From an uncultured Methylomirabilota bacterium (GTDB taxonomy: Bacteria > Methylomirabilota > Methylomirabilia > Methylomirabilales > 2-02-FULL-66-22): 64,000 nt of DNA. The stretch is from contig CAWJSJ010000002.1 in assembly GCA_963845565.1 (NCBI GenBank), forward strand, positions 1,184,001 through 1,248,000, in the 5' to 3' direction. The translations under genes and the position numbers were made by a program. The notes below the pieces were generated by a model, which saw nothing but the letters and a program-made list of their open reading frames with translations, had not been told where the DNA came from and searched no databases. How positions within the stretch are numbered: the first letter of the stretch is position 1; each line of letters opens with the position of its first letter. Shown piece by piece: positions 498 to 49,826 of this stretch.

Positions 498-1551
498 ATG
501 GCAACGACGCTGAAGGACGTGCTGGACCGGTTGACCGTGGAAGGGGAACTCTACGAACGGTTGCCCGACCACCGTGTCCGTTGCTACGCCTGCGGGCATC
601 GCTGTCTCATTCCCGAGGGGCGGGACGGCGTGTGCAAGGTCCGGTTCAATCGAGGCGGGACGCTCTTCGTGCCCAGCGGGTACGTGGCGACCGCGCTGCA
701 ACTCGATCCCGTCGAGAAGAAGCCGTTCTTCCACGCGCTGCCGGGCGCGGCGGCGCTGTCCTTCGGCATGCTGGGCTGCGACTACCATTGCGGCTACTGC
801 CAGAACTGGATCACCTCCCAGGTCCTCCGCGATGGGGACGCCCTGACCCGCCCCGGCCGCGTCTCGCCGGAGGAGATCGTACGCTGCGCGGTTGAGCAGA
901 ACGCCCCCATCATCACCAGCACCTACAACGAGCCGCTCATCACCAGCGAATGGGCGGTGGCGATCTTCAAACTGGCCAAGGCCAGGGGCCTCAAGACGGC
1001 GTACGTGAGCAACGGCAACGCCACGCCTGAAGTCGTGGCGTATCTCAAGCCGTGGCTGGATCTCTACAAAGTGGACCTCAAGGGATTCGACGATGCGCAC
1101 TATCGCAAGCTGGGAGGCACGCTGCAGACCGTCCTGGACACCATCCGGTTGCTCGTCGCGGAAGGATTCTGGGTCGAGGTGGTCACGTTGGTGGTGCCGG
1201 GTTGGAACGACACCGAGGAGGAACTCCGAGGGATCGCCCGGTTTCTGGCGGGCGTGAGCCCGGACATCCCGTGGCACGTGACCGCGTTCCATCCGGATTA
1301 CCGGATGGAGGATCGGGGGTGGACGCCGGCCGCGACGCTCACGCGCGCGGCCGCGATCGGGCGGTCCGAGGGGCTCCACTTCGTCTATGCGGGGAACGCG
1401 CCCGGACGGACCGGGTCGCTGGAGAGCACCTACTGCCCGACCTGCATGACCCTGCTGGTCGAACGGGTCGGGTTCCGGGTGCTCGCCAATCAGCTTGGTG
1501 GCCGGGGCTTGCCCCCGCTGCCACACCCGGATTCCGGGGGTCTGGTCTTAG
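498..1551 (+). CDS. amrS: AmmeMemoRadiSam system radical SAM enzyme (probable 1-bp frameshift near 1508)
   Basis: CDYHCGYC radical SAM motif, DPVEKKPFFH, YNEP, PWHVTAFHPDY; family C-terminus CPRCHTRIPGVWS* lies in another frame ending at TAG 1549-1551. Confidence 0.9.
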
Positions 1552-1704
1552 CAGGCTGCTGAAAAGGCCCATCTGCGGCGTTGGCTTGCTCGGGCGCTCG
1601 CTGCGGCGTACCAAAGTACGCCTCACTCGGCCCTACGCTCGCCGCCTTGCATCTGGACCGTTTTGAGCAGCCTGGGAGAAAGCGAGTTTTTCAGCCGCCT
1701 GCTA
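1549..1704 (+). mobile_element. palindromic MITE-like repeat, copy A (core 1552-1674 plus extra TIR tail)
   Basis: CAGGCTGCTGAAAAGG...CGTTTTGAGCAGCCTG, then tail TTTTTCAGCCGCCTGCTA; homologous to four other copies in the window. Confidence 0.85.
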
Positions 1705-1783
1705 AGGGGTTTTCGCGCCGCGGTTCGCGGAGCGGTGCGCCGTTGCGTGCGATGAGCGCGCCGGTGCGTTGCCCCGCACGCCG

Positions 1784-1999
1784 TCAAGGGGTCTGGTCTT
1801 CCGCGGGACCGGGTGTGGGTTCAGAGACCGGCGCATCGGGCAGGGGTACACCGGGGGGCGCCTCGCTCCAGTCGATCGGGGGGCCGCCGCCGCCGGGAGC
1901 CTTCTCGGCCCGCCGCTCCCGCTTTTCTTTCTGTCGCGCCTGGCGCGTCACTTCCTTCCGCCGTTTTTCGCTCTTGTGCTGCCGAGATTTCCCTGGCAC
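1784..1999 (-). CDS. small basic hypothetical protein (71 aa)
   Basis: AGGAGG RBS before GTG at 1999; Lys/Arg-rich helix KRRKEVTRQARQKEKRERR followed by GPPID. Confidence 0.6.
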   Translation of the reverse strand: MPGKSRQHKSEKRRKEVTRQARQKEKRERRAEKAPGGGGPPIDWSEAPPGVPLPDAPVSEPTPGPAEDQTP

Positions 2000-2195
2000 G
2001 TGCCCTCCTGGGGGGTGGAGCCTCGTCCGCGCCCGATCGTCATGATGCCGGTGCGGGGTTTGGGCCAAAGATTTCACAGTCAGTGTATCGCAAGGATTGC
2101 ACGAACACCACTGAAACCGGGTCGGTGCAGCGATGAACAGAGCCTCACTCACGGGTCCGTCACGACCGGGCGGTCCTGGTGCGGCCCCGTACTCG

Positions 2196-3377
2196 CTACC
2201 CCGCGCGCACCTCCCGGGGCCGCCCGCACAGACGACTCCCTGCGGCAGCGAGGGCGAGCCCGACGGCCAGGACCACGTAGAGGCTGAGCAGGTCGCCGTG
2301 GGCAAGAATGAAGGTCGCCGTGACGGGCCCCAGCGCCATGCCCGCGAACCGGGCCGTGTTGATGACGCCGATGGTGCTGCCCCGGCTGCGACCCGCCACC
2401 TCGGCGAGAACGAGCGGGAAGACCCCGGCCGCGCATCCGGTCTGGGCCATCCGGATCATGGTGAAGGTCGTGACATCCGTGCCGAGCGCCAACAGGAGCT
2501 GACAGGCCGAGGCGCCGCCGGCGGCGAGCAGGATCAGGCGACCGGCGGGATAGCGGCCGGCCAGCCGGCTCCAGCCGTACGATCCGGCGGCCGAAGCCAA
2601 CCCGTACGCAAACACGATGACGCCCGCGGTGACGAGGCGCTGGGGCTCTGGAGTCCCGAAATCCCGCAGAATCGCCGGCAGGATGCTGGGGAGAAAGACG
2701 ATGTGCATGGTGGCGACGAGGGAGACTCCCCAGGCCGCCAGGACCTGCCGCCGGGGCACCGCATCGCCGCCCAGCGTTCGCGGGCGGGGCGGAATGCGCG
2801 TAAGGGCGAAATGCGAGAAGAGATAGATGCCGAAAAGGATGACCCCCGAGGCAAGGAACGCCCCGCGGAACCCCAACAGCTCCGCGCCCGCCGCCCCCAG
2901 GGGCGGACCGAAGATCTGCCCCAACGTCAGGACCGATTGATACGTTCCCAGGCGGCGGGGCAACTGTTCTTCCGAGGAGACCGCCGAGACGATGATGAGT
3001 CCGATGGTAGAGATTCCACCCAGGAATCCCTGGACGATCCGAATGGCGAGCAGGAATCGCACGTCGGTGGTGAACGCCATCAACACAACCAGGATCGCGT
3101 GGGAGATCAGGCCGCGCTCGAAGAGGGCCTTGGGGCTGTAGCGGTCAGAGAGCCCACCCCAGAACGCCGAGCCGAAGGTGGCGGTCGCCGAGGCGGCGCC
3201 CAGGATGAGCCCGGTCCAGCGCAGCGTGGCCGCCTCATCCATGGGGCTGACCGAGCGGATGTAGAAGGGCAGGAACACGAACATGAAATTGAGCGCGAAC
3301 GCGATGGAAAACTGCGCTGTACTGACGGCCAGGAAATCCCGGCCCCCTTCGCGCGCGCCGGCAGTGTTGCTGAACAT
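2196..3377 (-). CDS. MFS transporter (DHA1/MdtG-like)
   Basis: about 12 hydrophobic segments, WGGLSDRYS motif, RIVQGFLGG, GQIFGPPLG. Confidence 0.85.
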   Translation of the reverse strand: MFSNTAGAREGGRDFLAVSTAQFSIAFALNFMFVFLPFYIRSVSPMDEAATLRWTGLILGAASATATFGSAFWGGLSDRYSPKALFERGLISHAILVVLMAFTTDVRFLLAIRIVQGFLGGISTIGLIIVSAVSSEEQLPRRLGTYQSVLTLGQIFGPPLGAAGAELLGFRGAFLASGVILFGIYLFSHFALTRIPPRPRTLGGDAVPRRQVLAAWGVSLVATMHIVFLPSILPAILRDFGTPEPQRLVTAGVIVFAYGLASAAGSYGWSRLAGRYPAGRLILLAAGGASACQLLLALGTDVTTFTMIRMAQTGCAAGVFPLVLAEVAGRSRGSTIGVINTARFAGMALGPVTATFILAHGDLLSLYVVLAVGLALAAAGSRLCGRPREVRAG

Positions 3378-3587
3378 GGGCGCTCTTATACCACTCCGGC
3401 GCCGGCATGTATAGAGGTGGCGCGGCCGGCGGGGCAGCCCGTCGTACCTTCTCCAGGTTCGACTTGACACGGCTCCGGGGTGTGGGCGATGCTCCGGCAA
3501 CCGCAACGATCCCAGAGCGGGCCCAGAGCGGGGCGTCTGACCCCGCCCTCCCCGACGCGCGCCCGGCATTGTCGAGAGGAGCTATCC

Positions 3588-5147
3588 ATGCCGCACCGAA
3601 CCATCGAGGAGTTGATCGTACAGCTGGAGGAGAAGCAGCGGACGGTCTTGGCGGCCGGCGGCCCGGATCGCGTGCAGAAGCAGCATGAGGCGGGCAAGCT
3701 CACGGCGCGCGAGCGGCTGGACCGGCTGTTCGATCCGGGCTCATTCGTCGAGCTGGATATGTTCGTCGAACACCGCTGCACGACCTTCGACATGGCCAAA
3801 ACGACGGCGCCAGGGGACGGCGTGGTCACGGGCTTCGGACAGGTCAACGGCCGACTGGCCTACGCCTTTGCGCAGGACTTCACCGTGATCGGCGGTTCGC
3901 TGGGCGAGATGCACGCGGCGAAGATCTGCAAGCTGCAGGACCTGGCCATGAAGATGGGGGCCCCCATCATCGGGATCAACGATTCGGGCGGCGCCCGCAT
4001 CCAGGAGGGGGTGGATTCCCTCTACGGATATGGCTCGATCTTTTACCGGAACACGCTGGCCTCCGGGGTGATCCCCCAGATTTCCGTCCTGGTGGGACCG
4101 AGCGCGGGCGGCGCGGTGTATTCTCCGGCTCTCACTGACTTCGTGTTCATGGCGAAGGGGGCCGCCAAGATGTTCATCACCGGGCCGGACGTGATCAAGG
4201 CCGCCATCGGCGAGGAGATCTCCGCCGAGGAGCTGGGCGGCGCCATGACGCACAACCAGCTGTCGGGCAACGCTCACTTTGCGTGCGACACGGAGGAGGA
4301 GCTGTTCGAGACGCTGCGCGACCTGCTCTCCTTCCTCCCGCAAAACAACGTGGAGGACCCGCCGCGGACGGACACCGGCGACGATCCCCAGCGGACGGAC
4401 GACGGGCTGATCCCGCTGGTGCCCACCATCCCCACCAAGCCCTACGACATGCGGGATCTCATCGGCAAGGTGGTGGACCGGGGGGACTTCCTCGAGGTGC
4501 ACCGGCATTTCGCGCAGAACATCGTGGTCGGCTTTGCGCGGTTGAACGGCCAGCCCATCGGGATCGTGGCCAACCAGCCCCGCATCATGGCGGGCTGCCT
4601 GGACATCAACGCCTCGGACAAGGCGGCCCGCTTCGTCCGGTTCTGCGACGCATTCAACATCCCCCTGCTGACCGTGGTGGACGTGCCCGGCTACCTGCCG
4701 GGCTCGGCGCAGGAGTTCGGCGGGATCATCCGGCACGGGGCCAAGATGCTGTTCGCCTACTCGGAAGCGACGGTTCCCAAGGTGACGCTCATCGTCCGGA
4801 AGTCCTACGGCGGGGCCTATCTGGCCATGTGCGCCCGGCACCTGGGAGCCGACGTGGTGATCGCCTGGCCGCAGGCGGAGATCGCGGTGATGGGCCCCGA
4901 GGGGGCGGCGAACATCATCTTCCGCAAGGAGATCAAGGACGCTCCGGACCCGGCCGCCAAGCGGCAAGAGAAGATCGACGAGTATCGCCAGAACTTCGCC
5001 AACCCGTACCAGGCGGCCAGCCGTGGGTACGTGGACATGGTGATCAATCCCAAGGACACCCGGCCGACGCTGGTGAGCGCCTTTGAAATGGCGGCCACCA
5101 AGCGGGAGCAGCGGCCGCGGAAGAAGCACGGAAACATCCCCCTCTGA
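3588..5147 (+). CDS. mmdA: acyl-CoA carboxyltransferase / methylmalonyl-CoA decarboxylase alpha subunit
   Basis: GKLTARER, DSGGARIQEG, DVPGYLPG, KKHGNIPL; operon with delta, gamma and beta subunits. Confidence 0.9.
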   Translation: MPHRTIEELIVQLEEKQRTVLAAGGPDRVQKQHEAGKLTARERLDRLFDPGSFVELDMFVEHRCTTFDMAKTTAPGDGVVTGFGQVNGRLAYAFAQDFTVIGGSLGEMHAAKICKLQDLAMKMGAPIIGINDSGGARIQEGVDSLYGYGSIFYRNTLASGVIPQISVLVGPSAGGAVYSPALTDFVFMAKGAAKMFITGPDVIKAAIGEEISAEELGGAMTHNQLSGNAHFACDTEEELFETLRDLLSFLPQNNVEDPPRTDTGDDPQRTDDGLIPLVPTIPTKPYDMRDLIGKVVDRGDFLEVHRHFAQNIVVGFARLNGQPIGIVANQPRIMAGCLDINASDKAARFVRFCDAFNIPLLTVVDVPGYLPGSAQEFGGIIRHGAKMLFAYSEATVPKVTLIVRKSYGGAYLAMCARHLGADVVIAWPQAEIAVMGPEGAANIIFRKEIKDAPDPAAKRQEKIDEYRQNFANPYQAASRGYVDMVINPKDTRPTLVSAFEMAATKREQRPRKKHGNIPL

Positions 5148-5168
5148 TTCGCCGACGTCTCCACGGAG

Positions 5169-5546
5169 GTGGCGAGCATGCTGCAAGGATTCTCGGGTGG
5201 GGTCATCCTCAGCGTCGTGAACCAGACGATCGTGTTCCTGGTCCTCGGTGGGCTGGCACTCGCAATCGTCCTTGTCCAGAAATTGGTCCACCGATTCGAG
5301 TCGCGGGCCGCCGGGCCGGCCATCCGATCGGCGCCCACCCCGCCGCGTGGGCCCGCCCCTCGCCCCCCGGAGCGGAAGCCGCCTGTCGCCGCGCTGGTGG
5401 CGGCGGTGCACGCGTTTGCCGGGGCCGCACCGGGGACGTTGCGGCTCGTGGGCGTGACGCGGGTGGGCGCGGGAAGTCCATGGAAGGCAGCGGGCCGGAC
5501 GGAGGGCCTGGGGATGAACGTTTCGAACGGAGAGCGACTGGAATGA
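5169..5546 (+). CDS. mmdD: Na+-translocating decarboxylase membrane anchor (OadG/MmdD family)
   Basis: single N-terminal TM (IVFLVLGGL), Pro/Ala linker, VAALVAAV, SPWKAAGR. Confidence 0.8.
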   Translation: MASMLQGFSGGVILSVVNQTIVFLVLGGLALAIVLVQKLVHRFESRAAGPAIRSAPTPPRGPAPRPPERKPPVAALVAAVHAFAGAAPGTLRLVGVTRVGAGSPWKAAGRTEGLGMNVSNGERLE

Positions 5547-5565
5547 TCCGCGCCAGGAGGAGTGT

Positions 5566-5961
5566 ATGAAGACGTATCGCGTGACGGTGGAGGGGCAGAC
5601 CTACGAAGTGACGGTCGAAGAGGTCACCGCAGCGCCCACGTCGAGCGGCGGGGCGCGACCGACCCCGGCCGCGTCGCGGACCCCCGCGCCTGCGCCGCAG
5701 GCAGGGCCGCGGCCGGGGATCCCGCCTGTGCTCACGCTGGCCGCGGGGGAGCGCCCCGTCCCGGCGCCCATGCCCGGCAAGATCCTGGCCGTGAATGTGG
5801 TCCCGGGGGACACGGTGGCTGCGGGCGCCGTGCTGCTCATCCTGGAAGCCATGAAGATGGAAAACGACATCCTTGCGCCAGGGGACGGCAAGGTCAAGGC
5901 CGTGAAGGTGCAGAACGGGGATACGGTCAACACCGGAGACCTCATGATCGTCCTCGAGTAG
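5566..5961 (+). CDS. mmdC: biotin carboxyl carrier (gamma) subunit
   Basis: EAMKMEN biotinylation motif, YRVTVEGQTYEVTVEE N-terminus, APMPGKI. Confidence 0.92.
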   Translation: MKTYRVTVEGQTYEVTVEEVTAAPTSSGGARPTPAASRTPAPAPQAGPRPGIPPVLTLAAGERPVPAPMPGKILAVNVVPGDTVAAGAVLLILEAMKMENDILAPGDGKVKAVKVQNGDTVNTGDLMIVLE

Positions 5962-5994
5962 GATGGTCCGGCGGTTTGCCAGGAGGCGTCGCGG

Positions 5995-7113
5995 ATGGAC
6001 GTGCTCGTAAAGACCCTGCAGATCTTCACCCAGAGCGGGTACGCAGCCATGACGTGGGGCAACATCCTCATGCTGCTGGTGGGCGGGACCTTGCTCTATC
6101 TCGCCATGGCGAAGGGGTTCGAGCCGCTGCTCCTGCTCCCGATCGCCTTCGGTTCGATCCTCGTCAACCTCCCGCTGTCCGGAATCATGGACGATCATGG
6201 GTTTCTTCGCATCCTCTATTTCGGCACCGAGCACGAGATGTTCCCGATCCTGATCTTCATGGGGGTGGGGGCCATGACGGATTTCGGGCCCCTGATCGCG
6301 AACCCCAGCACCATCCTGCTGGGAGCGGCGGCCCAGTTCGGCGTCTACGTGGCCATGCTCGGAGCGATCCTGCTGGGCTTTCCGATCACGGCGGCGTCCG
6401 CGATCGGGATCATCGGTGGGGCGGACGGGCCGACCTCGATCTACCTGGCCTCCAAGATGGCGCCGGAGTACCTCGGCGCGATTGCCGTCGCCTCGTATTC
6501 GTACATGTCGCTGGTGCCCTTGATTCAACCCCCGATCATCAAGCTGCTGACCAAGCCGGCGGATCGCCGGATCATCATGGGGCAAATGCGGCCGGTCTCC
6601 CGCGTCGAGAAGATCATCTTTCCCATCGCGACCACGCTGTTGGTGAGTCTCTTGCTTCCCCCGGTGACGGCCCTGCTCGGGGCGCTGATGTTCGGGAATC
6701 TGATGCGGGAGTCGCTGGTGGTGAATCGTCTGTCCGACACGGCGCAGAATGCGATGATCAACATCGTCACGATCTGCCTCGGCCTGACCGTCGGCGGGAC
6801 CATGGGGGCGGAGCAGTTTTTGCAGCCTACCACGCTCAAGATCATCTTCCTCGGCCTGGTGGCATTCGCCTTTGGAACGGCCGGGGGAGTCGTGCTGGGC
6901 AACATCATGTGTCGGCTGTCGGGAGGGAAGATCAATCCCATGATCGGCTCGGCCGGTGTGTCGGCGGTGCCCATGGCCGCCCGCGTGGTCCACGTCCTCG
7001 GGCAGAAGGAGAATCCGGCGAATTTCCTCCTGATGCACGCCATGGGGCCCAACGTGGCCGGGGTCATCGGCACCGCCGTCGCGGCCGGAGTGTTTCTGGC
7101 GCTGCTGCGGTAG
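5995..7113 (+). CDS. mmdB: Na+-translocating decarboxylase beta subunit
   Basis: [41 protein letters not shown]. Confidence 0.95.
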
Positions 7114-7136
7114 TCATAGACGAGGGAGGGTGGACC

Positions 7137-7484: not shown

Positions 7485-7554
7485 CCCGCGCCGCTGCGGC
7501 GAGAGGTCTGAGGCCCTCCGGCGGGCCGCCCCGTCCCTGGCGGGAGGGCAGCGG

Positions 7555-8709: not shown

Positions 8710-8789
8710 GTCCGCCCGCCGCACGCTTCGGTCTTGACATGCACCGCCACGCTGAGCCATCCTGCACACCGACTTTCACGGAGACGCGC

Positions 8790-13175: not shown

Positions 13176-14144
13176 TCAGAACGGCCAGTGCAGACTGTAA
13201 ATGCTCCGGCCGCCGGGGGCGAAGGGGCCCTTGAGGACCGCCTCGATCTCTTCCTTGGGCCGCATGGTCACCTCTTCGATGGGCGGCAGCTTCCCCGGTG
13301 GGAAGGTCCTCTTGATGTCGTCGTGAAGCTTCACCATGTAGTCCAGGAGGGCGCGGACCCCCGGATAGGCCTTCTCGGCGGTCGCCTTGCTGGCTTTGCC
13401 CACCACGCCGGGCTGATAAGCGGCGATCTCCATGGGGCCGCAGCCCACTTGTCCGTACCAGGCGATGGCCCGGTGGAGGAGGTTGCCCGCCTTGTCGATG
13501 TGGCCATCCGGCAGGTAGCCGCGGGGCTCGGTGTCCACCACGTCTTCCATGTGCATGAACTCGGGGAAGAGGGCGAGCGACCAGGAGGTCTCCACCTCGT
13601 CCGCATGGATGAAGGGCGTATCCCACGGGCCGCCGTCTTTGGTGGTCTTGAAGTGCTCCTGGATGGCATGGTACCAGTTCAGGTTGATGAAGATCCCGGG
13701 TACCTGAAACGTCTTGGCGAACTGGTGGATGGCGGTCGGGATCACATATTCCTGGCCGTGACCGTTGAGCAGGATCTGTTTCCGGAAGCCCATGTTCCAG
13801 AGGCCGACCATGATCGCCTTGAGCTGGCCGATGAAGATCTCCTCGGGCACGATGATCGTCCCAGGCATCCCCATGTGGTGGTAGGGGTGCGAGCCGTACC
13901 AGACGGGCTGGGCCACCGTGCAGCCCACTTTCTTTGCCACGGCCTCGGCCATCCGGGTCACCAGGAAGGTGTCCTCGCCGATGCAAGCGTGGGGCCCATG
14001 AGCCTCGGTGGACCCGATCGGTACGATGATGATGTCGTTCTGCTTCAGGCGCGCGTCGATCTGCTTCCAGGTCATGTTCTGCAGATAGATCTGGTCGGCA
14101 GACTCCATGTGGCCGCCTTTCGGGGGCAACGTCCACTCACTCAC
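13176..14144 (-). CDS. iolN: 3-dehydro-scyllo-inosose hydrolase (creatininase family)
   Basis: AAGGAGG + GTG; GSTEAHG, GEDTFLVTRMAE, HPYHHMGMPGT, NGHGQE, PFIHADEVETSWSLALFPEFM match remembered Thermotoga IolN. Confidence 0.88.
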   Translation of the reverse strand: MSEWTLPPKGGHMESADQIYLQNMTWKQIDARLKQNDIIIVPIGSTEAHGPHACIGEDTFLVTRMAEAVAKKVGCTVAQPVWYGSHPYHHMGMPGTIIVPEEIFIGQLKAIMVGLWNMGFRKQILLNGHGQEYVIPTAIHQFAKTFQVPGIFINLNWYHAIQEHFKTTKDGGPWDTPFIHADEVETSWSLALFPEFMHMEDVVDTEPRGYLPDGHIDKAGNLLHRAIAWYGQVGCGPMEIAAYQPGVVGKASKATAEKAYPGVRALLDYMVKLHDDIKRTFPPGKLPPIEEVTMRPKEEIEAVLKGPFAPGGRSIYSLHWPF

Positions 14145-14161
14145 GGTAGACCTCCTTATAA

Positions 14162-14319
14162 GGACAGGGACAACGACAGGGGCAGGGATTGAGAATTCCG
14201 GCGCCCGGCGCCTGCCCTCTCCTTGTGCTTTTTGTGGCTCCTCGGCTCTTGGCTCTACGCTCTCGACACCAGGCTCTCGGCACTCAATCCATCTTGATCC
14301 CGAACTTCTTGAACTTCTC
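14162..14319. repeat. mosaic of degenerate 6-, 9- and 7-bp tandem repeats
   Basis: GGACAG/GGACAA/CGACAG/GGGCAG; TTGTGCTTT/TTGTGGCTC; CTCGGCT/CTTGGCT/CTACGCT/CTCGACA/CCAGGCT/CTCGGCA; GAACTTCTT/GAACTTCTC. Confidence 0.7.
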
Positions 14320-14343
14320 CTTTCGCATGCTCCTGAGGCAGGA

Positions 14344-15465
14344 CTACCGTGGCCCCACCAGCGGCAACCCATACACCGACTTCCAGCCGGGGCTCATGGG
14401 CTCCTGGAGGTACGGGGCCAGCTCCTCGGGGATCGCGCAGCGTCGTCTTCTCGATGGGCGGGAGCTTGCCCGGCGGGGAAGGCGGCCAGGATCTCGTCCT
14501 GGACCAGGGTCAGGTAGCGCAGGATGGCCACCAGGGGCCGCTTGGCCTTCTGGGCGGTCGGCATGGGTGGCCTTGCCGACCACGCCCTTCCGGGGTGCCC
14601 TTGATCTCGATGGCGAAGTGGCCCTCGCCCTCGCTCCAGCGGTGGGGCCGGGTGTACATGTCCACCGAGGTGTCGAAGTGGCCGCCGGGCAGGAACTGGA
14701 CCGACTCGGTGTCCACGGCCTAGGTCATGTCCACCATCTCGGGGAAGAGGTAGCAGCGAGAGCGAGGTCTCCGACTCGTCGGCGTGGATGAAGGGGGTGT
14801 CGTACTCGCCGCCCTTCTCCTTGGTGCGGAAGAACTCGCGCACCGCCCGGTGCCAGTCCATCACCCGGAAGATGCCCGGGAGCTGGTAGCGCTTGCAGAA
14901 CTCCTGCAGGGCCGACTCCAGCATCCAGAGGTGGCCGTGGTTGTTGACGATAGATCTGCTTGCGGAAGCCGTCGTTCCACAGCCCCAGCATCACGTCGAT
15001 CAGCAGCTCCCGCACCACTTCTTCCCGCAGGATGACGGTGCCGGGCATGCCCAGGTGGTGGTAGGGGTGGCCGCCGTAGTTGAAGGGCGGCAGCGCCAGG
15101 TTGATCGGGGCGCCGCGCTTGGCCGTGTAGCGGCGCACGCCCTCGCAGATCATGCTGACGTACAGGGTGTCCGCCGCGCTCACCATGTGCTGGCCGTGGT
15201 TCTCGGTGCAGCCCACCGGGATCAGGACGATGTCGTTCTTGCGCCGGTTGGCCTCCACCTGGTGGCGGACGGTGGTCTGGATGTAGGAGCCGGGCTTGGC
15301 CCACTCGCAGCCGGCGGCGGGGAAGCCGTACTCGGCGAGCCAGGCGTCGATCTGGGCGTCGCTGGCCTCCCAGATCTCCTTCTTCATGCGCCCGACGGCG
15401 TTGTCTTCGAAGAACAGGTCGGGCTGCTTGGTGGCGAGGAGCCCTTGGGGGGTTGGGATGCTCAT
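14344..15465 (-). CDS. second IolN-like creatininase-family hydrolase, broken by several frameshifts
   Basis: GCTENHG, HPYHHLGMPGT, GLWNDGFRKQI, PFIHADESETS and the C-terminus EPMSPGWKSVY are spread over four ORF-track entries. Confidence 0.8.
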
Positions 15466-21333: not shown

Positions 21334-21487
21334 TAGCAGGATGCTAAGAACTCACTCTACCACAGGCTGCTCAAAAAGGTCCAGATGCCAGGCGGTGCGC
21401 TGAAGCCCGAGCGAGACGTACTAGAGGTACGTCGCAGCGAGTGGCAAGGCACACCAACGCCGCAGATGGGCCTTTTTCAGCAGGCTG
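21334..21487 (-). mobile_element. palindromic MITE-like repeat, copy B (with extra TIR tail)
   Basis: reverse-strand homolog of 1549-1704; supplies the TGA stop of dhaL. Confidence 0.85.
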
Positions 21488-38133: not shown

Positions 38134-39147
38134 ATGAGCACGCCGACGCGCATTTTTACCGAAGTGGACTACGAGAAGGATGGGAAGCAGGTCGGTTGGC
38201 TGCATCTCCCCTATTCGGTGACCCGTTCCGCCTACGGCAACATCGCCATACCCGTAGCGGTGATCAAGAACGGCGCCGGCCCCAGCGTCCTGCTCATGGC
38301 GGGGAATCACGGGGACGAGTACGAGGGGCAGGTCGGCCTCTGCAAGCTGATCCGGGCACTCGAACCGAAAGACGTTCGTGGCCGGGTCATCGCCGTTCCG
38401 GGAATCAACCTCCCCGCGGCCTTGGCCGGGGCTCGGGTGTCGCCCATCGACAACGTGAACTTCAACCGCGCCTTCCCCGGCGACCCGAACGGAACGCCCA
38501 CCTACGCGATTGCGCACTACGTCGACACTGTCCTCTTTCCCATGGTCAGCTTGTTCCTCGACCTGCACTCGGGGGGCTCCTCGCTCGATTACATCCCGTT
38601 TGTCTCGATGCGAACGAGCGGCGACGCGGCACTGGACGCCCGCGCGATGGCGGCGCTCAAGGCATTCGGGGCTCCGGTCAGCATGGTGTGGGCGCACACC
38701 CTGGACTCGGGATTCGCACAGACGGCGGCGCTCCGACGCGGCCTGGTGAGCCTGGGTGGGGAGTTCGGCGGCGGCGGTTCGGTGTCGCTGGACGGTCTGC
38801 GGATCGTCGAGCGTGGGCTCCGGCGATTCCTGGTCCATGCCGGGTGCATGGCCCCGGAATCGCTGCCGCCGGAATCGCTGCCGGCAACCCGTGTCGTGGA
38901 AGTGCGCAACCGCGACTACTTTGTGCTGGCCCCCGACGCCGGCCTGTTCGAGCCGTTCGTCGAGCTCGGGGAGACGGTCGAGGTCGGGCGGCCCTGCGGT
39001 CAGGTGCACTTCGTGGACAACCCCGGGCGAGAACCCGTGGCGGTTCGGTTCCGCGCGACAGGGACCGTGATCAGCAAGCGGCACTTCGGCCGGGTGGAAC
39101 GGGGCGATTGCGTGGCGCACTTGGCCACCGACTGGGCAGGCTGCTGA
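38134..39147 (+). CDS. succinylglutamate desuccinylase/aspartoacylase family (DoeB-like deacylase)
   Basis: AGNHGDEYEG, NFNRAFPG, DLHSGG, EFGGGG. Confidence 0.9.
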   Translation: MSTPTRIFTEVDYEKDGKQVGWLHLPYSVTRSAYGNIAIPVAVIKNGAGPSVLLMAGNHGDEYEGQVGLCKLIRALEPKDVRGRVIAVPGINLPAALAGARVSPIDNVNFNRAFPGDPNGTPTYAIAHYVDTVLFPMVSLFLDLHSGGSSLDYIPFVSMRTSGDAALDARAMAALKAFGAPVSMVWAHTLDSGFAQTAALRRGLVSLGGEFGGGGSVSLDGLRIVERGLRRFLVHAGCMAPESLPPESLPATRVVEVRNRDYFVLAPDAGLFEPFVELGETVEVGRPCGQVHFVDNPGREPVAVRFRATGTVISKRHFGRVERGDCVAHLATDWAGC

Positions 39148-39261
39148 AAAAGGCCCATCTGCGGCGTTGGCCCGCCTCGGCACTCGCTGCGACGTACCTC
39201 CAGTACGTCTCGCTCGGCCTTCGGCGAGCCGCCTTGCATCTGGACCTTTTTGAGCAGCCTG
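39137..39261 (+). mobile_element. palindromic MITE-like repeat, copy C
   Basis: CAGGCTGCTGAAAAAGGCCC...GGACCTTTTTGAGCAGCCTG; supplies the TGA stop of the upstream gene. Confidence 0.88.
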
Positions 39262-39400
39262 CTCGACCTCGGTGGCAGGCCAGGCATTTGGAGCCGTTCG
39301 GGGCGCTTGCGCGCCATCCCGTCGATGACGGATGCGGACAGATCGGCCAGGTGCGCCGGCCTGCGGACGTGAACCCAGCCACAGACAGAGGGAGGGACCC

Positions 39401-40960: not shown

Positions 40961-41048
40961 GCCGCTGCGACTGCTCACGGCGCGGAGGGGGCCGCATCGG
41001 CCCTCCCTCCGCGCACGCTCTTTCTCGGTGGTTCCCGCGGAGTCCGGC

Positions 41049-41993: not shown

Positions 41994-42880
41994 GCCTCGG
42001 ACTCGAGGGGGCCGAGCGAGACGGCGCGGGCCGGGGGCGAAACCCGGCCTGGAAGACCTGGCGTCGCCTGCGGCGTCACCGGCTGTTCATGACAGGGTTG
42101 ATCCTCTTCGGTCTCGTGGTCGTAATCGCGCTGGCCGCGGGTCTGCTGGCTCCCCATTCCCCGAATCAGAACAATTTCCGCTATCGTCTGGGTGCGCCGA
42201 CGGGAACCTATCTGCTCGGCACCGACGGTTTCGGCCGGGACGTCCTCAGCCGGGTCCTGCATGGGGCCCGGGTGTCGCTGCGGATCGGCCTGATGGTGGT
42301 GGTTCTGAACGGCATTCTCGGCACGCTCATCGGCTCGACCGCCGGGTATTTCCGGCGGCTGGACAACGTGATCATGCGACTCATGGACGGCCTGATGGCG
42401 TTTCCCGCCATCCTGCTGGCGATTGCGCTGGTCGCCACGCTCGGCGCCTCGGAGATCAACGTGGTGCTGGCACTCACCGTCGCCTACGCGCCGCGAACGG
42501 CACGGATTGTGCGCGCGTCGGTGCTCGTCATCCGCGAGATGGAGTATGTCCAGGCCGCCATCGCGACCGGGGCCGGATATCTCCGGATCCTCTTTCGCCA
42601 TATCCTGACGAACAGCATGGCGCCGCTGATCGTCCAGCTCACGTTCATTTTCGCGGTGTCGGTCCTGGCGGAGGCGGTCTTGAGCTTCATCGGCGTCGGA
42701 CCGCCGCCGCCGACCCCCACCTGGGGCAACATCATTGCGGATGGCCGGAACTATATCCGGGAAGCCCCCTGGATTTCTTTGCTCCCGGGAATCGCCATCG
42801 CGGTGACCGTCCTGGGCCTGAACCTGCTGGGGGACGGGCTGCGCGATGTGCTCGATCCGCGGATGCGGGTCGAGCGATAG
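41990..42880 (+). CDS. ABC peptide/nickel-type permease (OppC/DppC-like)
   Basis: LGTDGFGRDVLSR, EYVQAA, PTWG, GDGLRDVLDPR. Confidence 0.93.
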   Translation: MSLGLEGAERDGAGRGRNPAWKTWRRLRRHRLFMTGLILFGLVVVIALAAGLLAPHSPNQNNFRYRLGAPTGTYLLGTDGFGRDVLSRVLHGARVSLRIGLMVVVLNGILGTLIGSTAGYFRRLDNVIMRLMDGLMAFPAILLAIALVATLGASEINVVLALTVAYAPRTARIVRASVLVIREMEYVQAAIATGAGYLRILFRHILTNSMAPLIVQLTFIFAVSVLAEAVLSFIGVGPPPPTPTWGNIIADGRNYIREAPWISLLPGIAIAVTVLGLNLLGDGLRDVLDPRMRVER

Positions 42881-43003
42881 TCGGCTGCTGAAAAACGCCC
42901 ATCTTCGGCGTTGGCTTGCTCGGGCATTCGCTGCGGCGTACCAATAGTACGCCACTCGGCGCTTCACGCTCCGCCTTGCATCTGGGCCTTTTTGAGCAGC
43001 CTG
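42881..43003 (+). mobile_element. palindromic MITE-like repeat, copy D
   Basis: TCGGCTGCTGAAAAACGCCC...GGGCCTTTTTGAGCAGCCTG, starting immediately after a TAG. Confidence 0.88.
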
Positions 43004-43040
43004 TTGGGGATTTCATTCTGCGATCTTGACGAGGTGACAC

Positions 43041-44003: not shown

Positions 44004-44143
44004 CGCCGAAATTCCATCGGTGACGGGCAGACGGTCACGGGGAAGGAAAGCAACGGTCGGCAGACGCGGGCGGGCCAGCGCGTGCGCAGGATCGGCAGGG
44101 CTGAGCGCTAGGGTCGGTAGGCGGCGGGTCGATTTCCACGTAT

Positions 44144-44182
44144 CGACCAAGGGGCGGCTCCAGCGGAGCCGCCCCTTGGTCG
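44144..44182 (+). terminator. 18-bp hairpin downstream of arcC
   Basis: CGACCAAGGGGCGGCTCC-agc-GGAGCCGCCCCTTGGTCG then TTT. Confidence 0.6.
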
Positions 44183-44394
44183 TTTGGTCGCGGTTCGGCC
44201 GGGTAAACCGGATCGGGCGGTCTCCTCGCGCGGGCCGTTCCAGATGTGCGCGCCACGCGGATCCTTCAGCGGCGTGCCTGGCGGACGCATGCGGGGACCC
44301 CGCGCTGGGGGCGAACGGCGAACGCCTGACGGCTCTGATTGTTCCAGCCGGCCCATAGGAAGTACCACTGACTGAACCACTGGCCGAAACCCCG

Positions 44395-44453
44395 TTGACA
44401 GGGACGGCCCGTTCATGGTCCCATTACACACTAGGATTGTATACAGGATACAG
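44395..44453 (+). promoter_or_regulatory. sigma70-like promoter with GntR operator-like site
   Basis: TTGACA at 44395; TTGTATACAGGATACAG. Confidence 0.5.
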
Positions 44454-44493
44454 AAACGGGATGGGCGGTGACCGCCCGACAAGGTTAGTGCGA

Positions 44494-45258
44494 ATGCAAT
44501 TCTCCGCATTCAGCCGGGGAAAGTCGGTTCGCCAGTTGGCGTACGAGACCCTCTACCGGGCGATCTGCACGGGGGAACTCACGGCGGGCACGCGGTTGGT
44601 GGAAGAGGAGCTCGCCGAGCAGATGCACATCAGCCGGACTCCCATCCGCGAGGCGCTCCGACGGTTGGAATCGGAGGGACTGATCGCCCACGCGCACGGA
44701 AAGGGGGCCAGCGTCGTCGGTTTCAATCGCGATGACGTGATTGAGCTGTATTCGATCCGCGAAGCGTTGGAGGCATTGGCGATTCATCACACCATCCGGC
44801 ACGTCACCAGAGAAGAGATCACCCAACTCAATGCCATCGTCGATAAGATGCGCTCGAATCTTCACAGCAAGGATGTGAGTGCACATTTCGAGTGCAATCA
44901 GAAATTCAACGACCTGTTGATCGAGACCTGCAAGATGCCGAGACTGATTCGGCTCATCAACACCTATCGTGAGCATCTCCACCATTTCCGCTACGCGGCC
45001 ATGGGCAAGCACGAAGCCAGAATGCTGGAGGCGTTTCGAGAGCACGAGCAGATTCTGCGCGCCATCATCGCGAAAGACGCTGAGAAGGCCGATTCCCTGG
45101 TGAGACAGCACCTGCAAGCGGCGAAGCGCGCGTACACCTCGGGAAACTGCCCAGCGGAAAGCGCGGGTGTGCGATATCGCACGCCGCAGAAGGCCCCTGA
45201 CGTGCCCGCTCCCCAAGGCCTTCGCGGGGGCGGTGAGACCGTTTCTCGGAAAGTGTAA
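44494..45258 (+). CDS. GntR family regulator (FCD domain)
   Basis: GTRLVEEELAEQMHISRTPIREALRRLESEGL, EHEQIL. Confidence 0.92.
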   Translation: MQFSAFSRGKSVRQLAYETLYRAICTGELTAGTRLVEEELAEQMHISRTPIREALRRLESEGLIAHAHGKGASVVGFNRDDVIELYSIREALEALAIHHTIRHVTREEITQLNAIVDKMRSNLHSKDVSAHFECNQKFNDLLIETCKMPRLIRLINTYREHLHHFRYAAMGKHEARMLEAFREHEQILRAIIAKDAEKADSLVRQHLQAAKRAYTSGNCPAESAGVRYRTPQKAPDVPAPQGLRGGGETVSRKV

Positions 45259-45400
45259 TCTGGGCCCGGTACGACGCTGGCCGTTCGGGATGGTGGAAGC
45301 CAGATTCCCGCCGTGCAGGTCCAAGGGCGGCTCGAGAACAGGGCGGTCTCAGCATGCCACACCCTGATTGTCCCGACTACCTCAACAAGGAGGAACACGC

Positions 45401-46381
45401 ATGAAGACGAATGGGTGGTTGCTGCTCGCGGTTGTTGCGGGGGTGTTGGCTTTACAGGGGCCCGTGGACGCGGCCTGGGAGCCCAAGGGGCAGATGGAAT
45501 GCATCGCCCCCTCGAACCCCGGCGGAGGCTGGGATGCTATCTGCCGCACGACGGCCGCCGTCCTCCAGAAAACCGGTATCACCAAGGAAACCATGTACGT
45601 TACCAACATGCCGGGAGGCAGTGGCGCGGTGGCCATCGCCAACGTCATCACCAAGCGGAAGGGGGATACCAACCTGCTGGTGGCCGCCTCCAACGCCCTC
45701 ACGCTCACCATCGCCATGAAGCGGACCGCTCACACTTTCAACGATGTCATTCCGCTGGCACAGGTCGGTGCCGAGATCGGCGGGTTCTTCGTCAAGGCCG
45801 ACTCCAAGTACAAGACCCTCGCCGATCTCGTGACCGCCCTCAAGAAGGACCCGAAAGCCGCGACCTTCGCGGGCGGCTCGGCCCCGGGAAGCCTGGACCA
45901 TATCAAGGCCGCCGTGTTTGCCAAGGCGATCGGCGTGGACGCGACGAAGGTGGCGTACGTGCCGTTCCAGGGTGGTGGGGAGGCGATGACCTCTCTCCTG
46001 GGGGGGCACACGGACGTCGCCGCCATCGACCTCTCGGAAGCTGCGGGCCAACTTGAGGCCGGAAAGGTCCGGTGCCTGGGCCTCTTGTCCGAGAAGCGTT
46101 CCACCAAGTTTAAGGACATCCCCACCACCTTCGAGCAGAACGTCAAGGTTGCCTTCCCCATCTGGCGCGGACTCTACATGGCGCCGGGCGTGCCGGCGGA
46201 GGCGGTGGCGTTCTGGTCCGGCGCGATCCAGAAGATGGTGGCCAGCAAGGAGTGGGACGCCAACCGTGAGCGGCTGGGTTGGGAGCCGACGTACAAGTTC
46301 GGCGACGACATCGTGAAGTTCGTGAAGGACGAGACGGCCACCATGCAATCACTGCTGAAGGAGCTCGGCTTCCTAAAGTAG
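45401..46381 (+). CDS. tctC: tripartite tricarboxylate transporter substrate-binding protein
   Basis: AAGGAGG RBS, PSNPGGGWD, NMPGGSG, PFQGGGEA, WRG. Confidence 0.93.
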   Translation: MKTNGWLLLAVVAGVLALQGPVDAAWEPKGQMECIAPSNPGGGWDAICRTTAAVLQKTGITKETMYVTNMPGGSGAVAIANVITKRKGDTNLLVAASNALTLTIAMKRTAHTFNDVIPLAQVGAEIGGFFVKADSKYKTLADLVTALKKDPKAATFAGGSAPGSLDHIKAAVFAKAIGVDATKVAYVPFQGGGEAMTSLLGGHTDVAAIDLSEAAGQLEAGKVRCLGLLSEKRSTKFKDIPTTFEQNVKVAFPIWRGLYMAPGVPAEAVAFWSGAIQKMVASKEWDANRERLGWEPTYKFGDDIVKFVKDETATMQSLLKELGFLK

Positions 46382-46485
46382 GTCGAGCTGGCGGCCCCCC
46401 GGCACTATGCCTTTCTGGGGGTCAAACGTATCCTATGTCCGTCTCCGCGTCGTCGCGAGCGTCGCGGCGGCGCGGAGACGGCAAC

Positions 46486-47034
46486 GTGAGGGTGACTCTC
46501 GTGAGCGCTTCCGTGAAGGGCAGGAGACGCAACCGCCTCGAAGGGCTGGCCATCCTCTTAGTGGCCGGTGGTTATCTGTGGGAAGCCCACAACGTCCCCG
46601 ATCTTTTTCAAATGCCCGGCGTGCCAGGACCGACGACATTTCCGTACCTTTTGGGGATTGTCTTCGCATTCGCCGGCCTGTGGCTGCTCGTCTCGCCTGC
46701 CGACCTTTTGGCCCACCGGCGGCAGCCGGCGGCAGAAGGCCGTGCGGAGGAACGCCCAACCCCCGCAAAGGGTCTCTGGACGCGGCTCACCACCGACTGG
46801 CACTTTTACACCATGTGGATCGTGGTCGTGGGCTACCTTGCTTTCATGCCGTTCGTCGGCTTCCCGGTGGCGACATTCGTCCTGCTGGCCGTGTTCACGT
46901 TCCTCCTGGGGGAAGCGCGCTGGTGGGTCATCGTGGGTCTCGCCCTCGTGGTGACGACGGTAATTCACCTCGGGTTCGCCAAGGGACTGAACGTCCGGCT
47001 GCCGCTCGGCGTGCTGGAATCGCTGTTGAAGTGA
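46486..47034 (+). CDS. tctB: tripartite tricarboxylate transporter small membrane protein
   Basis: GPTTFP, 4 TM, LNVRLPLG; start uncertain. Confidence 0.85.
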   Translation: MRVTLVSASVKGRRRNRLEGLAILLVAGGYLWEAHNVPDLFQMPGVPGPTTFPYLLGIVFAFAGLWLLVSPADLLAHRRQPAAEGRAEERPTPAKGLWTRLTTDWHFYTMWIVVVGYLAFMPFVGFPVATFVLLAVFTFLLGEARWWVIVGLALVVTTVIHLGFAKGLNVRLPLGVLESLLK

Positions 47035-47111
47035 CCGAGCCGACCCTGACGCACGCTCGACCGCTCTCGGTGCGACGCCTCAACCGCGACTAAGGTGAAG
47101 GAGTAGCCCCC

Positions 47112-48623
47112 ATGTTCGAGTATCTCCTGAGCGGGTTTGCGGTGGCCCTCCAGCCCATGAACCTGTTGATCGCCTTGGTGGGATGTTTGGTGGGGACGCT
47201 GATCGGCGTTCTTCCAGGTCTGGGACCGACGGCCACCCTCGCCATGCTGATTCCCTTGGTTTTTAGTATGCCCCCGGCGACCGCCCTGATCCTGCTCACA
47301 TCGGTGTACTACGGGTCCATGTACGGAGGTTCCACCACTTCGATCCTGGTGAACATCCCGGGGGAGTCCGCCTCGGTCATCACCTGCCTGGACGGCAACA
47401 AGATGGCGCTGCAGGGCCGGGCGGGACCGGCCCTGGCCATCGCCGCCATCGGGTCGTTCATCGCCGGGACTTTTGCCGTTCTTGTGCTTACTCTGGTGGG
47501 CGCCCCGGTGGCCGGCTACGCCCTTCACTTCGGCCCCGCGGAATTCTTTGCCCTGATGGTCTTCGGGTTGTCCACGGTAGCGAGCCTGACCGGCACCAAT
47601 GTCGTCAAGTCCGTGATCACGACCTGCTTCGGCCTGATGATTGCCACGGTCGGCATCGACCTCGTTTCCGGCGCCCCCCGGTATACCTTCGGCAATCCCT
47701 TCCTCCAGGACGGCATCGACTTCGTGGTGGTGGCCATCGGGATGTTCGCGTTCACCGAGGTCATCGTCACGGCCATCGAAGTACGCGAGGGGACCCGGGC
47801 GGAGATCATCAAGGCGGAGCGCATCTGGCTCAGCTGGGAGGAGTTCAAGTACAGCGTGCCGTCTATCTCGCGGGGAACCGTGTTCGGCTTTCTGGTGGGG
47901 ATGCTCCCTGGAGCCGGTGCCACGCTGTCCACGTTCATTGCCTATAACCTGGAAAAGCGGATCTGCAAGCATCCCGAACGACTTGGTACAGGAGACATCC
48001 GAGGGGTGGCCTGCCCCGAGGCGGCCAACAACGCGGCCAGCGGGGCCTCCCTGGTTCCCCTGCTCACCCTGGGACTGCCGGGCGGCGGTGCCACCGCAGT
48101 CATGCTGGGCGCCCTGATGATGCTGGACATCACTCCAGGCCCGCTGCTCTTCCAGAAGCACGGGGCCATGGTCTGGGCGTTGATCGCCAGTATGTATGTG
48201 GGCAACGCCCTGCTCCTCATCCTCAACTGGCCTCTGGTGAACGTCTTCGCCCGCGTGATGTCAGTGCCGGCCAAGTACCTGATGCCCATCGTTTTGGTGA
48301 TCTCCACCATCGGGGTCTGGTCGCTGTCCTACAGCTCGGTGGACCTGCTTCTCGCCGCGGGCGCTGGCATGCTCGGCTATTACCTCCGCCGGAACAAGTA
48401 TCCCATCGAGCCACTCATTCTGGGTCTCATCCTCGGGGGGCGGATGGAGCAGGCCTACCGGCAGGCGCTCATCATCTCCAAGGGAAGCAATTTCATCTTC
48501 TTCACGAAACCGATCTCGCTCACCTTGCTTGTGGGCGCAGTGCTATTCCTGTTCCTGCCGACGCTCCTGGCCAAGGCGAAGCAGTTCCAGTCGGCCCGGG
48601 CAGCGAGCGAGGGGGCGGCGTAA
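47112..48623 (+). CDS. tctA: tripartite tricarboxylate transporter permease
   Basis: [37 protein letters not shown]. Confidence 0.95.
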
Positions 48624-48673
48624 CTGGTTGTGGGCGTCGGCGCGTGCGCCGAGACGGGTGACGCGAGGGTTCG

Positions 48674-49681
48674 ATGACGGGAGCGGTTCCCCTGCTGTCA
48701 GAGCGCGATCGCCTCGAGGCGCGCAAGCTCATCGAATCGGAGGGGCTGCGATTCGAGACCGACGCCGACGACATCGTGGGGCTCTACGACGGAGAGCGCT
48801 TGGTCGCCACCGGCTCACGGGCAGGGTACGTGCTCAAGATGCTGGCGATCGCCCCCAGCCAGCAGGGGGGGGACGCGCTGGGAGAACTCGTCACGCTGCT
48901 CATGCAGCGGGGCATGGATGCAGGGCATGAGACGTTTTTCGTCTACACCCGCCCCGAGCACGCTCCATCCTTCGAACGACTCAATTTCCGACTCCTCGTC
49001 ACGCACGGCACGGCAGCTCTCTTGGAGATCGGCCTCGGGATCAGGGAATACCTCGACACGCACCGAACGCTGGTGCGTCCCGGACGAAACGGCGCCATCG
49101 TCGTCAACGGTAATCCCTTCACGCTGGGACACCTGCACCTCGCAGAGACGGCCGCCCGGCGGGTGGATCACCTGTATCTCTTCGTGGTGCACGAAGATCG
49201 GTCCGTGTTCCCGTTCGCCGCGCGCCTTCGTCTGGCGCGGGAGGCGACGGCGCACCTCCCGAACGTATTGGTGCTCGAGACGTCGCGGTATGCGGTCAGC
49301 GCCGGCACGTTCCCGTCGTACTTCCTCAAGCGGCTCGACGACGCGGCCTTGCTCCAAATGCAGTTCGATGTGCGGCTTTTCGGCTCCGTGCTTGCGCCGC
49401 CGTTCTCGGTGCGGGCGCGTTTCGTGGGGGACGAGCCGTACTGCGCGACGACGGCCGCGTACAACCGCACGATGGCGGAAGTGCTGAGCGAGTACGAAAT
49501 CACGTGGACGCAGATTCCGCGGCTGGCACACGGCGGCGCGGCCATCAGCGCCAGCCGCGTGCGGGAGTGCCTGGGCCGCCGCGACCTCGATCGCGTGGCG
49601 TCATGGGTGCCTCCGGCAACCATGACATTCCTCCGCTCCCGAGAGGGTGAGGCCATCGCGCAGCGCCTGGCGGACTCCTAG
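48674..49681 (+). CDS. citC: [citrate (pro-3S)-lyase] ligase
   Basis: GNAT-like N-terminus, NGNPFTLGH, TFPSYFLK, RFVGDEP, ISASRVR. Confidence 0.92.
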   Translation: MTGAVPLLSERDRLEARKLIESEGLRFETDADDIVGLYDGERLVATGSRAGYVLKMLAIAPSQQGGDALGELVTLLMQRGMDAGHETFFVYTRPEHAPSFERLNFRLLVTHGTAALLEIGLGIREYLDTHRTLVRPGRNGAIVVNGNPFTLGHLHLAETAARRVDHLYLFVVHEDRSVFPFAARLRLAREATAHLPNVLVLETSRYAVSAGTFPSYFLKRLDDAALLQMQFDVRLFGSVLAPPFSVRARFVGDEPYCATTAAYNRTMAEVLSEYEITWTQIPRLAHGGAAISASRVRECLGRRDLDRVASWVPPATMTFLRSREGEAIAQRLADS

Positions 49682-49700
49682 GAGGAGAGTCGCTCTTACC

Positions 49701-49826
49701 CAGGTTGCTCAAAAAGGCCCAGATGCAAGGCGGAACGTGATCCGAGGGCCGAGGCGTACTGAGTCCGTACGCCGCAGGACCGCGGGAGCGTTCCAGCGCA
49801 GCAGATGGGCGCTTTTGAGCAGCCTG
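49701..49826 (-). mobile_element. palindromic MITE-like repeat, copy E (most divergent)
   Basis: CAGGTTGCTCAAAAAGGCCCAGATGC...GCAGATGGGCGCTTTTGAGCAGCCTG between citC and citD. Confidence 0.85.

Follow-up and report, generated by a model that had tools for sequence, protein, structure and literature searches.

The five dispersed repeats (copies A to E, Table 1) of a 64,000-nucleotide stretch of DNA from an uncultured Methylomirabilota bacterium (contig CAWJSJ010000002.1, positions 1,184,001 to 1,248,000; hereafter the window) are read here as copies of a mobile, gene-less MITE (miniature inverted-repeat transposable element) of the IS5 type that carries a maintained hairpin, a reading to which we give a probability of about 0.9. 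The original prediction had proposed an undescribed nonautonomous element or an RNA motif of 3′ untranslated regions (3′ UTRs); the former was upheld, with the addition of IS5-type ends, the latter was weakened, and the family proved to be undescribed only in part. A fuller account, in which the interior of the MITE is also exchanged between copies by gene conversion and the fold is kept as single-stranded DNA (ssDNA), is judged probable, at clearly lower confidence.

The copy census was performed with an nhmmer profile built from the five window copies and iterated twice over the genome that holds the window (G000; 5.36 Mb, 98.7% complete). As had been anticipated from the window, the genome-wide copy number was high, with 209 loci detected, 197 of them full-length (a few of the latter being mis-extended tandem or partial copies). 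The element is composed of a left arm, an interior of ~65 nt, an inner inverted copy of the arm, and a tail of 26 to 27 nt ending in an outer repeat. Its basic form is ~152 bp (a 125-nt hairpin plus a 27-nt tail), and full copies with their tails span ~150 to 210 bp and are noncoding. The cores (n = 197) were found in length steps: 105 of 123 to 127 nt, 65 of 139 to 148 nt, 23 of 163 to 167 nt, one of 184 nt, and three others. Of the terminal inverted repeats initially proposed, the right one is internal, with the tail lying beyond it; the true right terminal repeat was recognized within 4 mismatches in 91 of 197 copies (80 of them at +26/27), compared with 3 of 197 in the control. The tail sequence is weakly conserved, and the inner repeat is imperfect: opposite the left arm, 183 of 197 copies retain a G.G mismatch. 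YTAR-like 4-mers flank both sides of the element. A core was directly followed by YTAR in only 1 of 197 copies, which indicates that the core does not insert alone in G000. Copy density was uneven across 200-kb bins (e.g., 0 versus 17 full copies at G000:C1:800000-1000000 and C2:1400000-1600000, respectively).

A search of 41 genomes for DUF772 related the ends of the MITE to those of an insertion sequence (IS). IS elements of 1335 to 1340 bp with the terminal repeats of the MITE were identified in G020 and G019, which belong to the same genus as G000, and the same repeats were detected at both IS ends in G028 and at one end in G014. The IS protein passed the NCBIfam model NF033581 (transpos_IS5_4) with 264 to 266 bits (cut-off 140). 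All 26 flanks of 13 IS elements read YTAR, and the two flanking 4-mers were identical in 11 of the 13. On comparison of the ends, the core start of the MITE resembled the IS right end (C in 191 of 197), and its tail end was mostly of the IS left-end type (T in 35 of 55).

Mobility, which had been predicted along with the repeat, was borne out by empty sites in a close relative of G000 (G009), of which 1.2 Mb out of ~5.9 Mb (about a fifth) was compared through the element flanks. Among G000 sites with both flanks found in G009, 29 of 53 were filled and 24 of 53 were element-free; in the reciprocal comparison, 31 of 36 G009 sites were filled in G000 and 5 of 36 were element-free. At four of the empty sites (C2:1369221, C2:2477151, L162:18172, and that of copy A), a single target 4-mer was present in register.

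Several observations weigh against this kinship and mobility: (i) a clean absence is seen at a minority of the 24 element-free sites, the others mostly carrying further indels; (ii) among MITE copies, the left 4-mer equals the right one in just 8 of 62, which is weakly above the mean of 4.0 for shuffles (P = 0.03); (iii) no two cores are identical, the most similar pair sharing 96.8%, which speaks against a recent burst; (iv) neither DUF772 nor DDE_Tnp_1 (PF05598, PF01609) was detected in G000, and DUF772 was not found in the copy-rich genomes G002, G012, G013, and G022; and (v) G020 has 13 DUF772 matches, yet no match to the core pattern. DUF772 is present in congeners of G000, and an old MITE need not share its genome with the cognate transposase. 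Outside the copies, fuzzy matching of the terminal repeat yielded 60 sites, and the 150 nt read at each revealed a few shortened or refilled derivatives and no recognizable IS. Shortened forms in which the ends or the tail are retained but little of the interior is present were observed at G000:C5:205357, C2:2639172, C2:1633719, and C2:1604203; furthermore, heptamer-like repeats (TTCGAA and GCTGATA types) stand where the normal interior would be, enclosed or adjoined by arms or ends, at G000:C2:334414, C2:2204076, C5:748848, C5:737696, and C2:1604885.

The MITE was detected in 18 of 20 congeners and in one other family, and the strict core pattern in 15 of 151 phylum genomes (283 matches in G022 alone). 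When species genomes were scanned with a pattern that required the inner arm and set arm-less forms outside its scope, at least 117 loci were returned; the 80 titles listed include Nitrospirota, deltaproteobacteria, Binatia, Peptococcaceae, Methylomirabilia, and others. Among the matches listed (117), the left arm was present in 106, the outer repeat in 41, and a directly preceding stop codon in 63, while 98 distinct N-free cores were 120 to 128 nt long and the tails ran from ~14 to 87 nt. The G.G mismatch and the core length recur across phyla. A pattern for the apical hairpin alone was searched in five of these genomes and matched in four, all of deltaproteobacterial title. Thirty apical sites were read: IS5-type arms flank both sides in 10 and neither side in 17, and two further arm types were in evidence. 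That the interior exists without IS5 arms means that IS5 does not explain the interior's origin, a point that counts against a purely IS5-based account. The second arm type was observed around the same interior at L393, L397, L401, L405, L409, L412, L416, and L417 (deltaproteobacterial titles), with L409 and L417 having a tail that ends in an outer repeat; its parent IS was not found among 31 DUF772 loci. In addition, a GGGGAC-ended mini-hairpin occupies the same right-hand loop in L393 and L413 of G177, within two different arm types.

The length steps of ~20 nt were traced to a small hairpin module with a GGGTACCC-type foot, which takes the place of 6 to 7 bases at four core positions, one of them holding it in reverse orientation to the other three. 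Modules were present in 91 of 197 G000 cores compared with 8 of 53 G009 copies. Read foot first, the module triloops were GNA in 48 of 65 cases and TNC in 1 of 65; C(GNA)G loops are especially stable when formed in DNA, and the bias thus points to selection on ssDNA. The GGGTACCC-footed module was also detected in other G000 repeat families (23 sites in one search and 37 of 101 in another), at least three of them multicopy (G000:C1:284989, C1:784678, C1:1078146, and about 20 more sites). Other lineages have different modules at the same core loops: a second module, TCCGCC-loop-GGCGGA, occupies the left site in G003 and G011, and is also found breaking up tRNA-like copies next to small GIY-YIG genes in three relatives (L366, L373, and L384). 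Such genes lie within duplicated tRNA-like sequences at L362:1418-1800 (G000:C2:~609900-610280), L365, L366, L373, and L384, where the partial tRNA-like copies are interrupted by short hairpins that replace a few bases.

These distributions bear on the possibility that the hairpin interior is itself the real unit, a REPIN- or SRM-like ssDNA substrate that its own nuclease or recombinase edits and spreads and that has repeatedly acquired IS ends as vehicles. The same interior within other arms (the 17 of 30 sites above; L393 and L413 of G177; and Gmet_R1001-1024 of Geobacter, discussed below) would fit, as would a core length that stays constant across phyla while, among the matches listed, tails range widely; copy number does not track the presence of IS5; and the second module is found both in cores and beside GIY-YIG genes. 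Searches for the enzyme argue otherwise. No core was found in 24 small GIY-YIG loci, three of which had the second module type and two a partial likeness. The sole small GIY-YIG gene of G000 (its 83-amino-acid product, P0001, having a Pfam GIY-YIG match only) has no more than partial likeness to the main module, through a 10-mer that occurs 313 times outside the elements. The ~3-kb loci of 35 RAYT-like genes were likewise free of the core, with one module in L336 only, and no core was present near 30 RAYT-like loci of relatives. Together with the near absence of cores directly followed by YTAR, these results count against the interior as an independent unit, which we regard as a less likely alternative, and the GIY-YIG association of the second module is best regarded as a lead to an enzyme and not as a result. 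A RAYT partner within G000 was also considered and rejected: five Y1 (HUH) transposase-like genes of ~350 amino acids (G000:C3:54130, C1:43672, C2:1922155, and C2:558266, which are L001 to L004, and C2:327301, L195) all fell below the NF047646 cut-off, that of L003 looks frameshifted, and the four that were read have unrelated ends of the TIRYT kind, bounded by GGGGAC-type inverted repeats that fit TIRYT, or subclass 2.1, as described in the available text of PMC6006769. DUF559 was not found in G000.

The position of the MITE relative to genes was determined from gene calls made in this analysis, which are approximate. For the 197 copies, both flanking genes were co-oriented with the element in 132 cases, convergent in 35, opposed in 28, and divergent in 2. 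In 97 of 197 copies the last base of the upstream stop codon immediately precedes the core, and in 28 more the stop is a TGA within the left arm, as in copies A, B, and C, the element supplying the last codons of the gene; stops at the tail end were found in 14 only, versus the 97 at the core start. Many reversed copies begin 10 to 17 nt ahead of a start codon, as copy E does. The YTAR class being symmetric, the docking at stop codons can be put down to target choice, but the orientation cannot. A bias with respect to the replication strand was not seen; orientation follows transcription on both replichores, and convergent sites are divided 18 versus 17. At core position 2, A is replaced by C in 32 of 197 copies, recurrently at the stop-codon junction and with the pairing partner unchanged.

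Folding predictions were then set against this orientation. On either strand, and whether treated as RNA or as DNA, copies A and C folded better than every one of 200 dinucleotide shuffles. The consensus fold is one long irregular hairpin on either strand, with the minus strand more stable (179 of 197 copies as RNA and 186 of 197 as DNA) and its internal loops rich in A/G (2009 of 2724 bases). This better-folding strand is untranscribed at most sites (132 versus 28), and the 3′-UTR RNA reading is weakened accordingly. No Rfam family matched in the window, and in seven loci Rfam gave six weak, unrelated matches (E 0.17 to 2.8), none at the gathering threshold. A domesticated mRNA element similar to ERIC or Correia, which would be cotranscribed after the stop codon and set mRNA stability or termination through its fold, could account for the tight docking at stop codons, the strong orientation to transcription, and arms that evolve five times more slowly than nearby intergenic DNA, and it has a precedent in the orientation-dependent mRNA effects of ERIC in Yersinia, as given in the available text of PMC2229807. 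We nevertheless regard it as unlikely, as the transcribed strand is the weaker folder, 24 of 53 sites are not common to the close relative, and the host genes share no function and the element no Rfam match.

The apical stems described originally were verified (GGCGTAC/GTACGCC in A, D, and E; GACGTAC/GTACGTC in B and C), as were the middle stems of B, C, and E, with one G.T in B and one C.A mismatch in C. Covariation was examined in an alignment of the 125-nt class (101 cores, after exclusion of 6 named loci). Paired columns changed together on the same branch 78 times compared with 14.6 expected (8 to 14 with the partners slid), 10 of 43 pairs reached P < 0.01 in the tree-based co-change count, and 23 of 43 pairs displayed at least two Watson-Crick types (9 to 15 when slid, and at most 15 in 500 shuffles). 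Similarly, 11 double Watson-Crick changes in the arms were detected between orthologs, where 1.4 were expected. Other results weigh against reading these numbers as selection: (i) by a strict all-pairs G-test with a tree-based null, only 1 of 45 pairs passed in G000, and across phyla 3 of 44 pairs in the structure passed together with 2 outside it; (ii) wobbles are mixed, with G-C pairs favoring the minus strand (85 versus 50) and A-T pairs the plus strand (22 versus 13); and (iii) a single old change, once exchanged between copies, is counted as several, such that the tree counts are inflated. Hence, of the claim that covariation implies selection on a folded molecule, the paired changes beyond chance stood, and the proof of selection was weakened by copy exchange and by the single pair of the strict test. 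The pairing is maintained; the number of independent events is uncertain. Quite unlikely, in our estimate, is the absence of any selection on the fold, with one arm being copied onto the other by template switching and the product spread by conversion. Such copying would be in line with the left-arm change of G10 to the pairing C in 11 of 197 copies, where the partner never changes likewise, and with the nearly empty strict test; however, it would erase mismatches, whereas fixed mismatches and internal loops persist (the G.G in 183 of 197 copies, with the same G.G and length across phyla).

Exchange between copies was assessed at 29 sites shared by G000 and G009 (2 of 31 were dropped, one for tandem mispairing and one for a foreign interior), and base-by-base alignments were viewed for most pairs. 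The nearest G000 copy was the true ortholog for the tail at 15 of 29 sites but for the interior at only 5 of 29 (median rank 1 versus 43). Orthologous interiors differed by 0.12 to 0.28, near the level of paralogs (0.14 to 0.36), while the arms differed by 0.04 to 0.05. At shared sites, whole interior variants were swapped with private arm variants kept and with the tail and flanks orthologous, and modules of ~20 nt had been gained or lost at precise positions. A TTCGAA repeat stands between the arms at C2:2204076, the G009 counterpart having a normal interior. Within G000 alone, almost every combination of interior subtype, arm variant, and module is seen. Independent drift would not yield a pattern in which a paralog is closer than the ortholog, and arm-anchored gene conversion between copies is the simplest reading and a likely one. 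Counting against it, the tails differ between orthologs by 0.23, close to the 0.22 of plain intergenic DNA, and in 24 of 29 pairs the G009 copy is the one nearer the consensus, as could also result from polishing errors. That the swaps are assembly or polishing artefacts of G009 is very unlikely: although this excess, the fewer modules, and the 1-base indels of G009 would be so explained, mosaic combinations exist within G000 alone, several pairs are near-identical end to end and so exclude blanket smoothing, and private arm variants are common to orthologs whose interiors differ. Copy-to-copy rewriting is reportedly an old proposal for REP sequences, to judge by the title of a 1988 review cited in PMC3733652.

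For the IS5-type MITE as a whole, these results may be joined as follows. A passing IS5 element would supply the transposase in trans. Insertions at stop codons would spare the gene, as YTAR contains TAG or TAA, and copies oriented so that the stabler fold stays outside the mRNA would survive best. The two conserved arms could anchor copy-to-copy conversion of the interior, and the fold would be maintained on the minus strand as DNA, the site of the purine-rich internal loops and the C(GNA)G loops of the modules; in this scheme a protein would read the fold. The interior may be a long-lived hairpin riding on transposon ends. A still wider proposal, speculative and on balance improbable, is a layered ssDNA hairpin system across at least four phyla, in which an old foldback of ~85 nt, provided with different IS ends, is rewritten like a cassette between its arms, and its internal loops are landing sites for hairpins of 15 to 30 nt that replace 5 to 7 bases; small Ssn-like GIY-YIG nucleases or HUH nucleases would drive the process. 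If true, it would represent a natural, site-specific DNA-editing activity defined by its scars. As an IS5 MITE at gene ends, the element is ordinary. What is new here are the interior swaps, the gain and loss of modules at shared sites, and the same interior within other arms in deltaproteobacteria. A Geobacter repeat that has been unexplained since 2009 would thereby gain an identity and a mobility mechanism, and its type is shown across Nitrospirota, deltaproteobacterial, Firmicutes-titled, and Methylomirabilota genomes. The site-by-site comparisons are evidence that a bacterial repeat dispersed over the genome is rewritten from copy to copy, and the tiny hairpins that come and go exactly at fixed loops define substrates and products with which to look for the enzyme. 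Covariation of this kind can, furthermore, mislead searches for structured RNAs.

Table 1. Coordinates of the five MITE copies and adjoining features in the window.
Feature	Position	Strand	Remarks
Copy A, left target-site 4-mer (TTAG)	1548..1551	+	right counterpart CTAA at 1702-1705
Copy A, hairpin core	1552..1674	+	left arm (IS5 right-end type repeat), interior, inner inverted arm copy
Copy A, tail	1675..1701	+	ends in outer terminal repeat, 1 mismatch of 15
Copy B, core	21363..21487	-	present in G009 with compensated interior differences
Copy B, tail	21337..21362	-	worn: outer repeat with 3 mismatches of 15; then CTAC
Copy C, core	39137..39261	+	tail unrecognizable; missing from G009
TAG stop of ABC permease gene	42878..42880	+	directly abuts copy D
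Copy D, core	42881..43003	+	decayed tail; in G009 with different apical region
Copy E, core	49701..49826	-	reversed relative to citrate lyase operon; missing from G009

All five window copies were recovered at the coordinates and on the strands first reported for them (blastn against copy A, E 1e-37 to 7e-22), and the reported lack of a transposase in the window was confirmed, with no transposase family matched in 76 open reading frames (16 searched against NCBIfam and 60 against Pfam). The outer terminal repeat is intact in A, worn in B, and barely or not recognizable in C, D, and E. The left-arm TGA of copy A (1560-1562) is the stop of a radical SAM gene; its site in G009 is element-free with a single CTGA. 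The corresponding TGA of copy B (21477-21479, minus strand) ends dhaL, and that of copy C (39145-39147) ends a doeB-like deacetylase gene. Copy E lies between citC (stop 49679-49681) and a purine-rich stretch 14 nt before citD (49841). At copy C (window 39136-39296), G009 has an extra gene instead (G009:C6:151984-152896), a ~290-amino-acid open reading frame that we take from its sequence to be nitrilase-like; gene loss and element coincide at this site. Contigs from RNA runs (X16) connect the upstream gene to copy C and copy C to the next gene; they give no strand, ends, or level, may derive from DNA, and were given no weight. Among the pieces of DNA runs listed, none spans a whole copy plus both flanks. 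A metagenome scan for site B returned one true ortholog (L389), which ends inside the element, and one chance match (L388); this third assembly of the site, having the right arm and tail only, differs from both G000 and G009. The genes that host window copies share no common function, and no dedicated neighbor gene was apparent, the neighbors in the window and in the four-copy cluster L321 looking ordinary. Elsewhere in the window (13176-15465, minus strand) there are two tandem creatininase-family genes, the second of which matches about half of the profile only.

Comparison with known systems placed the interior with Gmet_R1001-R1024, a repeat family of Geobacter metallireducens that Aklujkar et al. 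(2009, PMC2700814) reported as 'predicted short RNA elements' and left unexplained. In the available text of that paper these repeats are intergenic, of similar length, and have the same apical palindrome, with flanking interior motifs that look alike by eye; the exact Geobacter palindrome, GRCGTAGCGCTGCTACGCC, occurs in 3 of 8 listed copies of G002, while the window copies have the GTAC form. Gmet_R1001-R1024 are, by eye, without IS5 arms, and the same text gives no mobility, structure test, or mechanism. The claim that the repeat was undescribed therefore probably fails for the interior, already printed for G. metallireducens, and holds for its combination with IS5 ends. Open papers contained no account of the element as an IS5 MITE or of its rewriting; ISfinder or supplementary MITE catalogues may hold the family. 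[quoted passage not shown]

In build, the MITE resembles ERIC (127 bp) and Correia/NEMIS (Delihas 2008, PMC2229807, available text) in its size, end-to-end stem, gene adjacency, and the importance of orientation; the termini of those repeats are TA, here YTAR, and a role in mRNA decay is reported for them. REP/REPIN-RAYT (PMC3733652, PMC6006769) and Ssn NTS/SRM (PMC11893778) systems are, in the parts of these papers available, likewise short, strand-specific, tagged multicopy hairpins, REP ends likewise often supply a stop codon, and the GTAC-tagged module is similar in build, although 'GTAC' does not occur in the main text of PMC3733652 or PMC6006769. Unlike in the REP/RAYT and Ssn systems, neither a RAYT nor an Ssn-like gene with the core or main module at its flanks was found in the loci examined. 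The closest match in ends and mobility is to IS5-family elements (NF033581) and the MITEs built from IS ends, with which the element shares 15-bp terminal repeats, a YTAR 4-bp duplication, empty sites, and the lack of coding capacity. It departs from IS5-derived MITEs in two respects: (i) it has an extra inverted end copy 27 nt inside, which makes it a foldback; and (ii) its interior has no visible likeness to the IS ends read, is exchanged between copies, and is common to other arm types.

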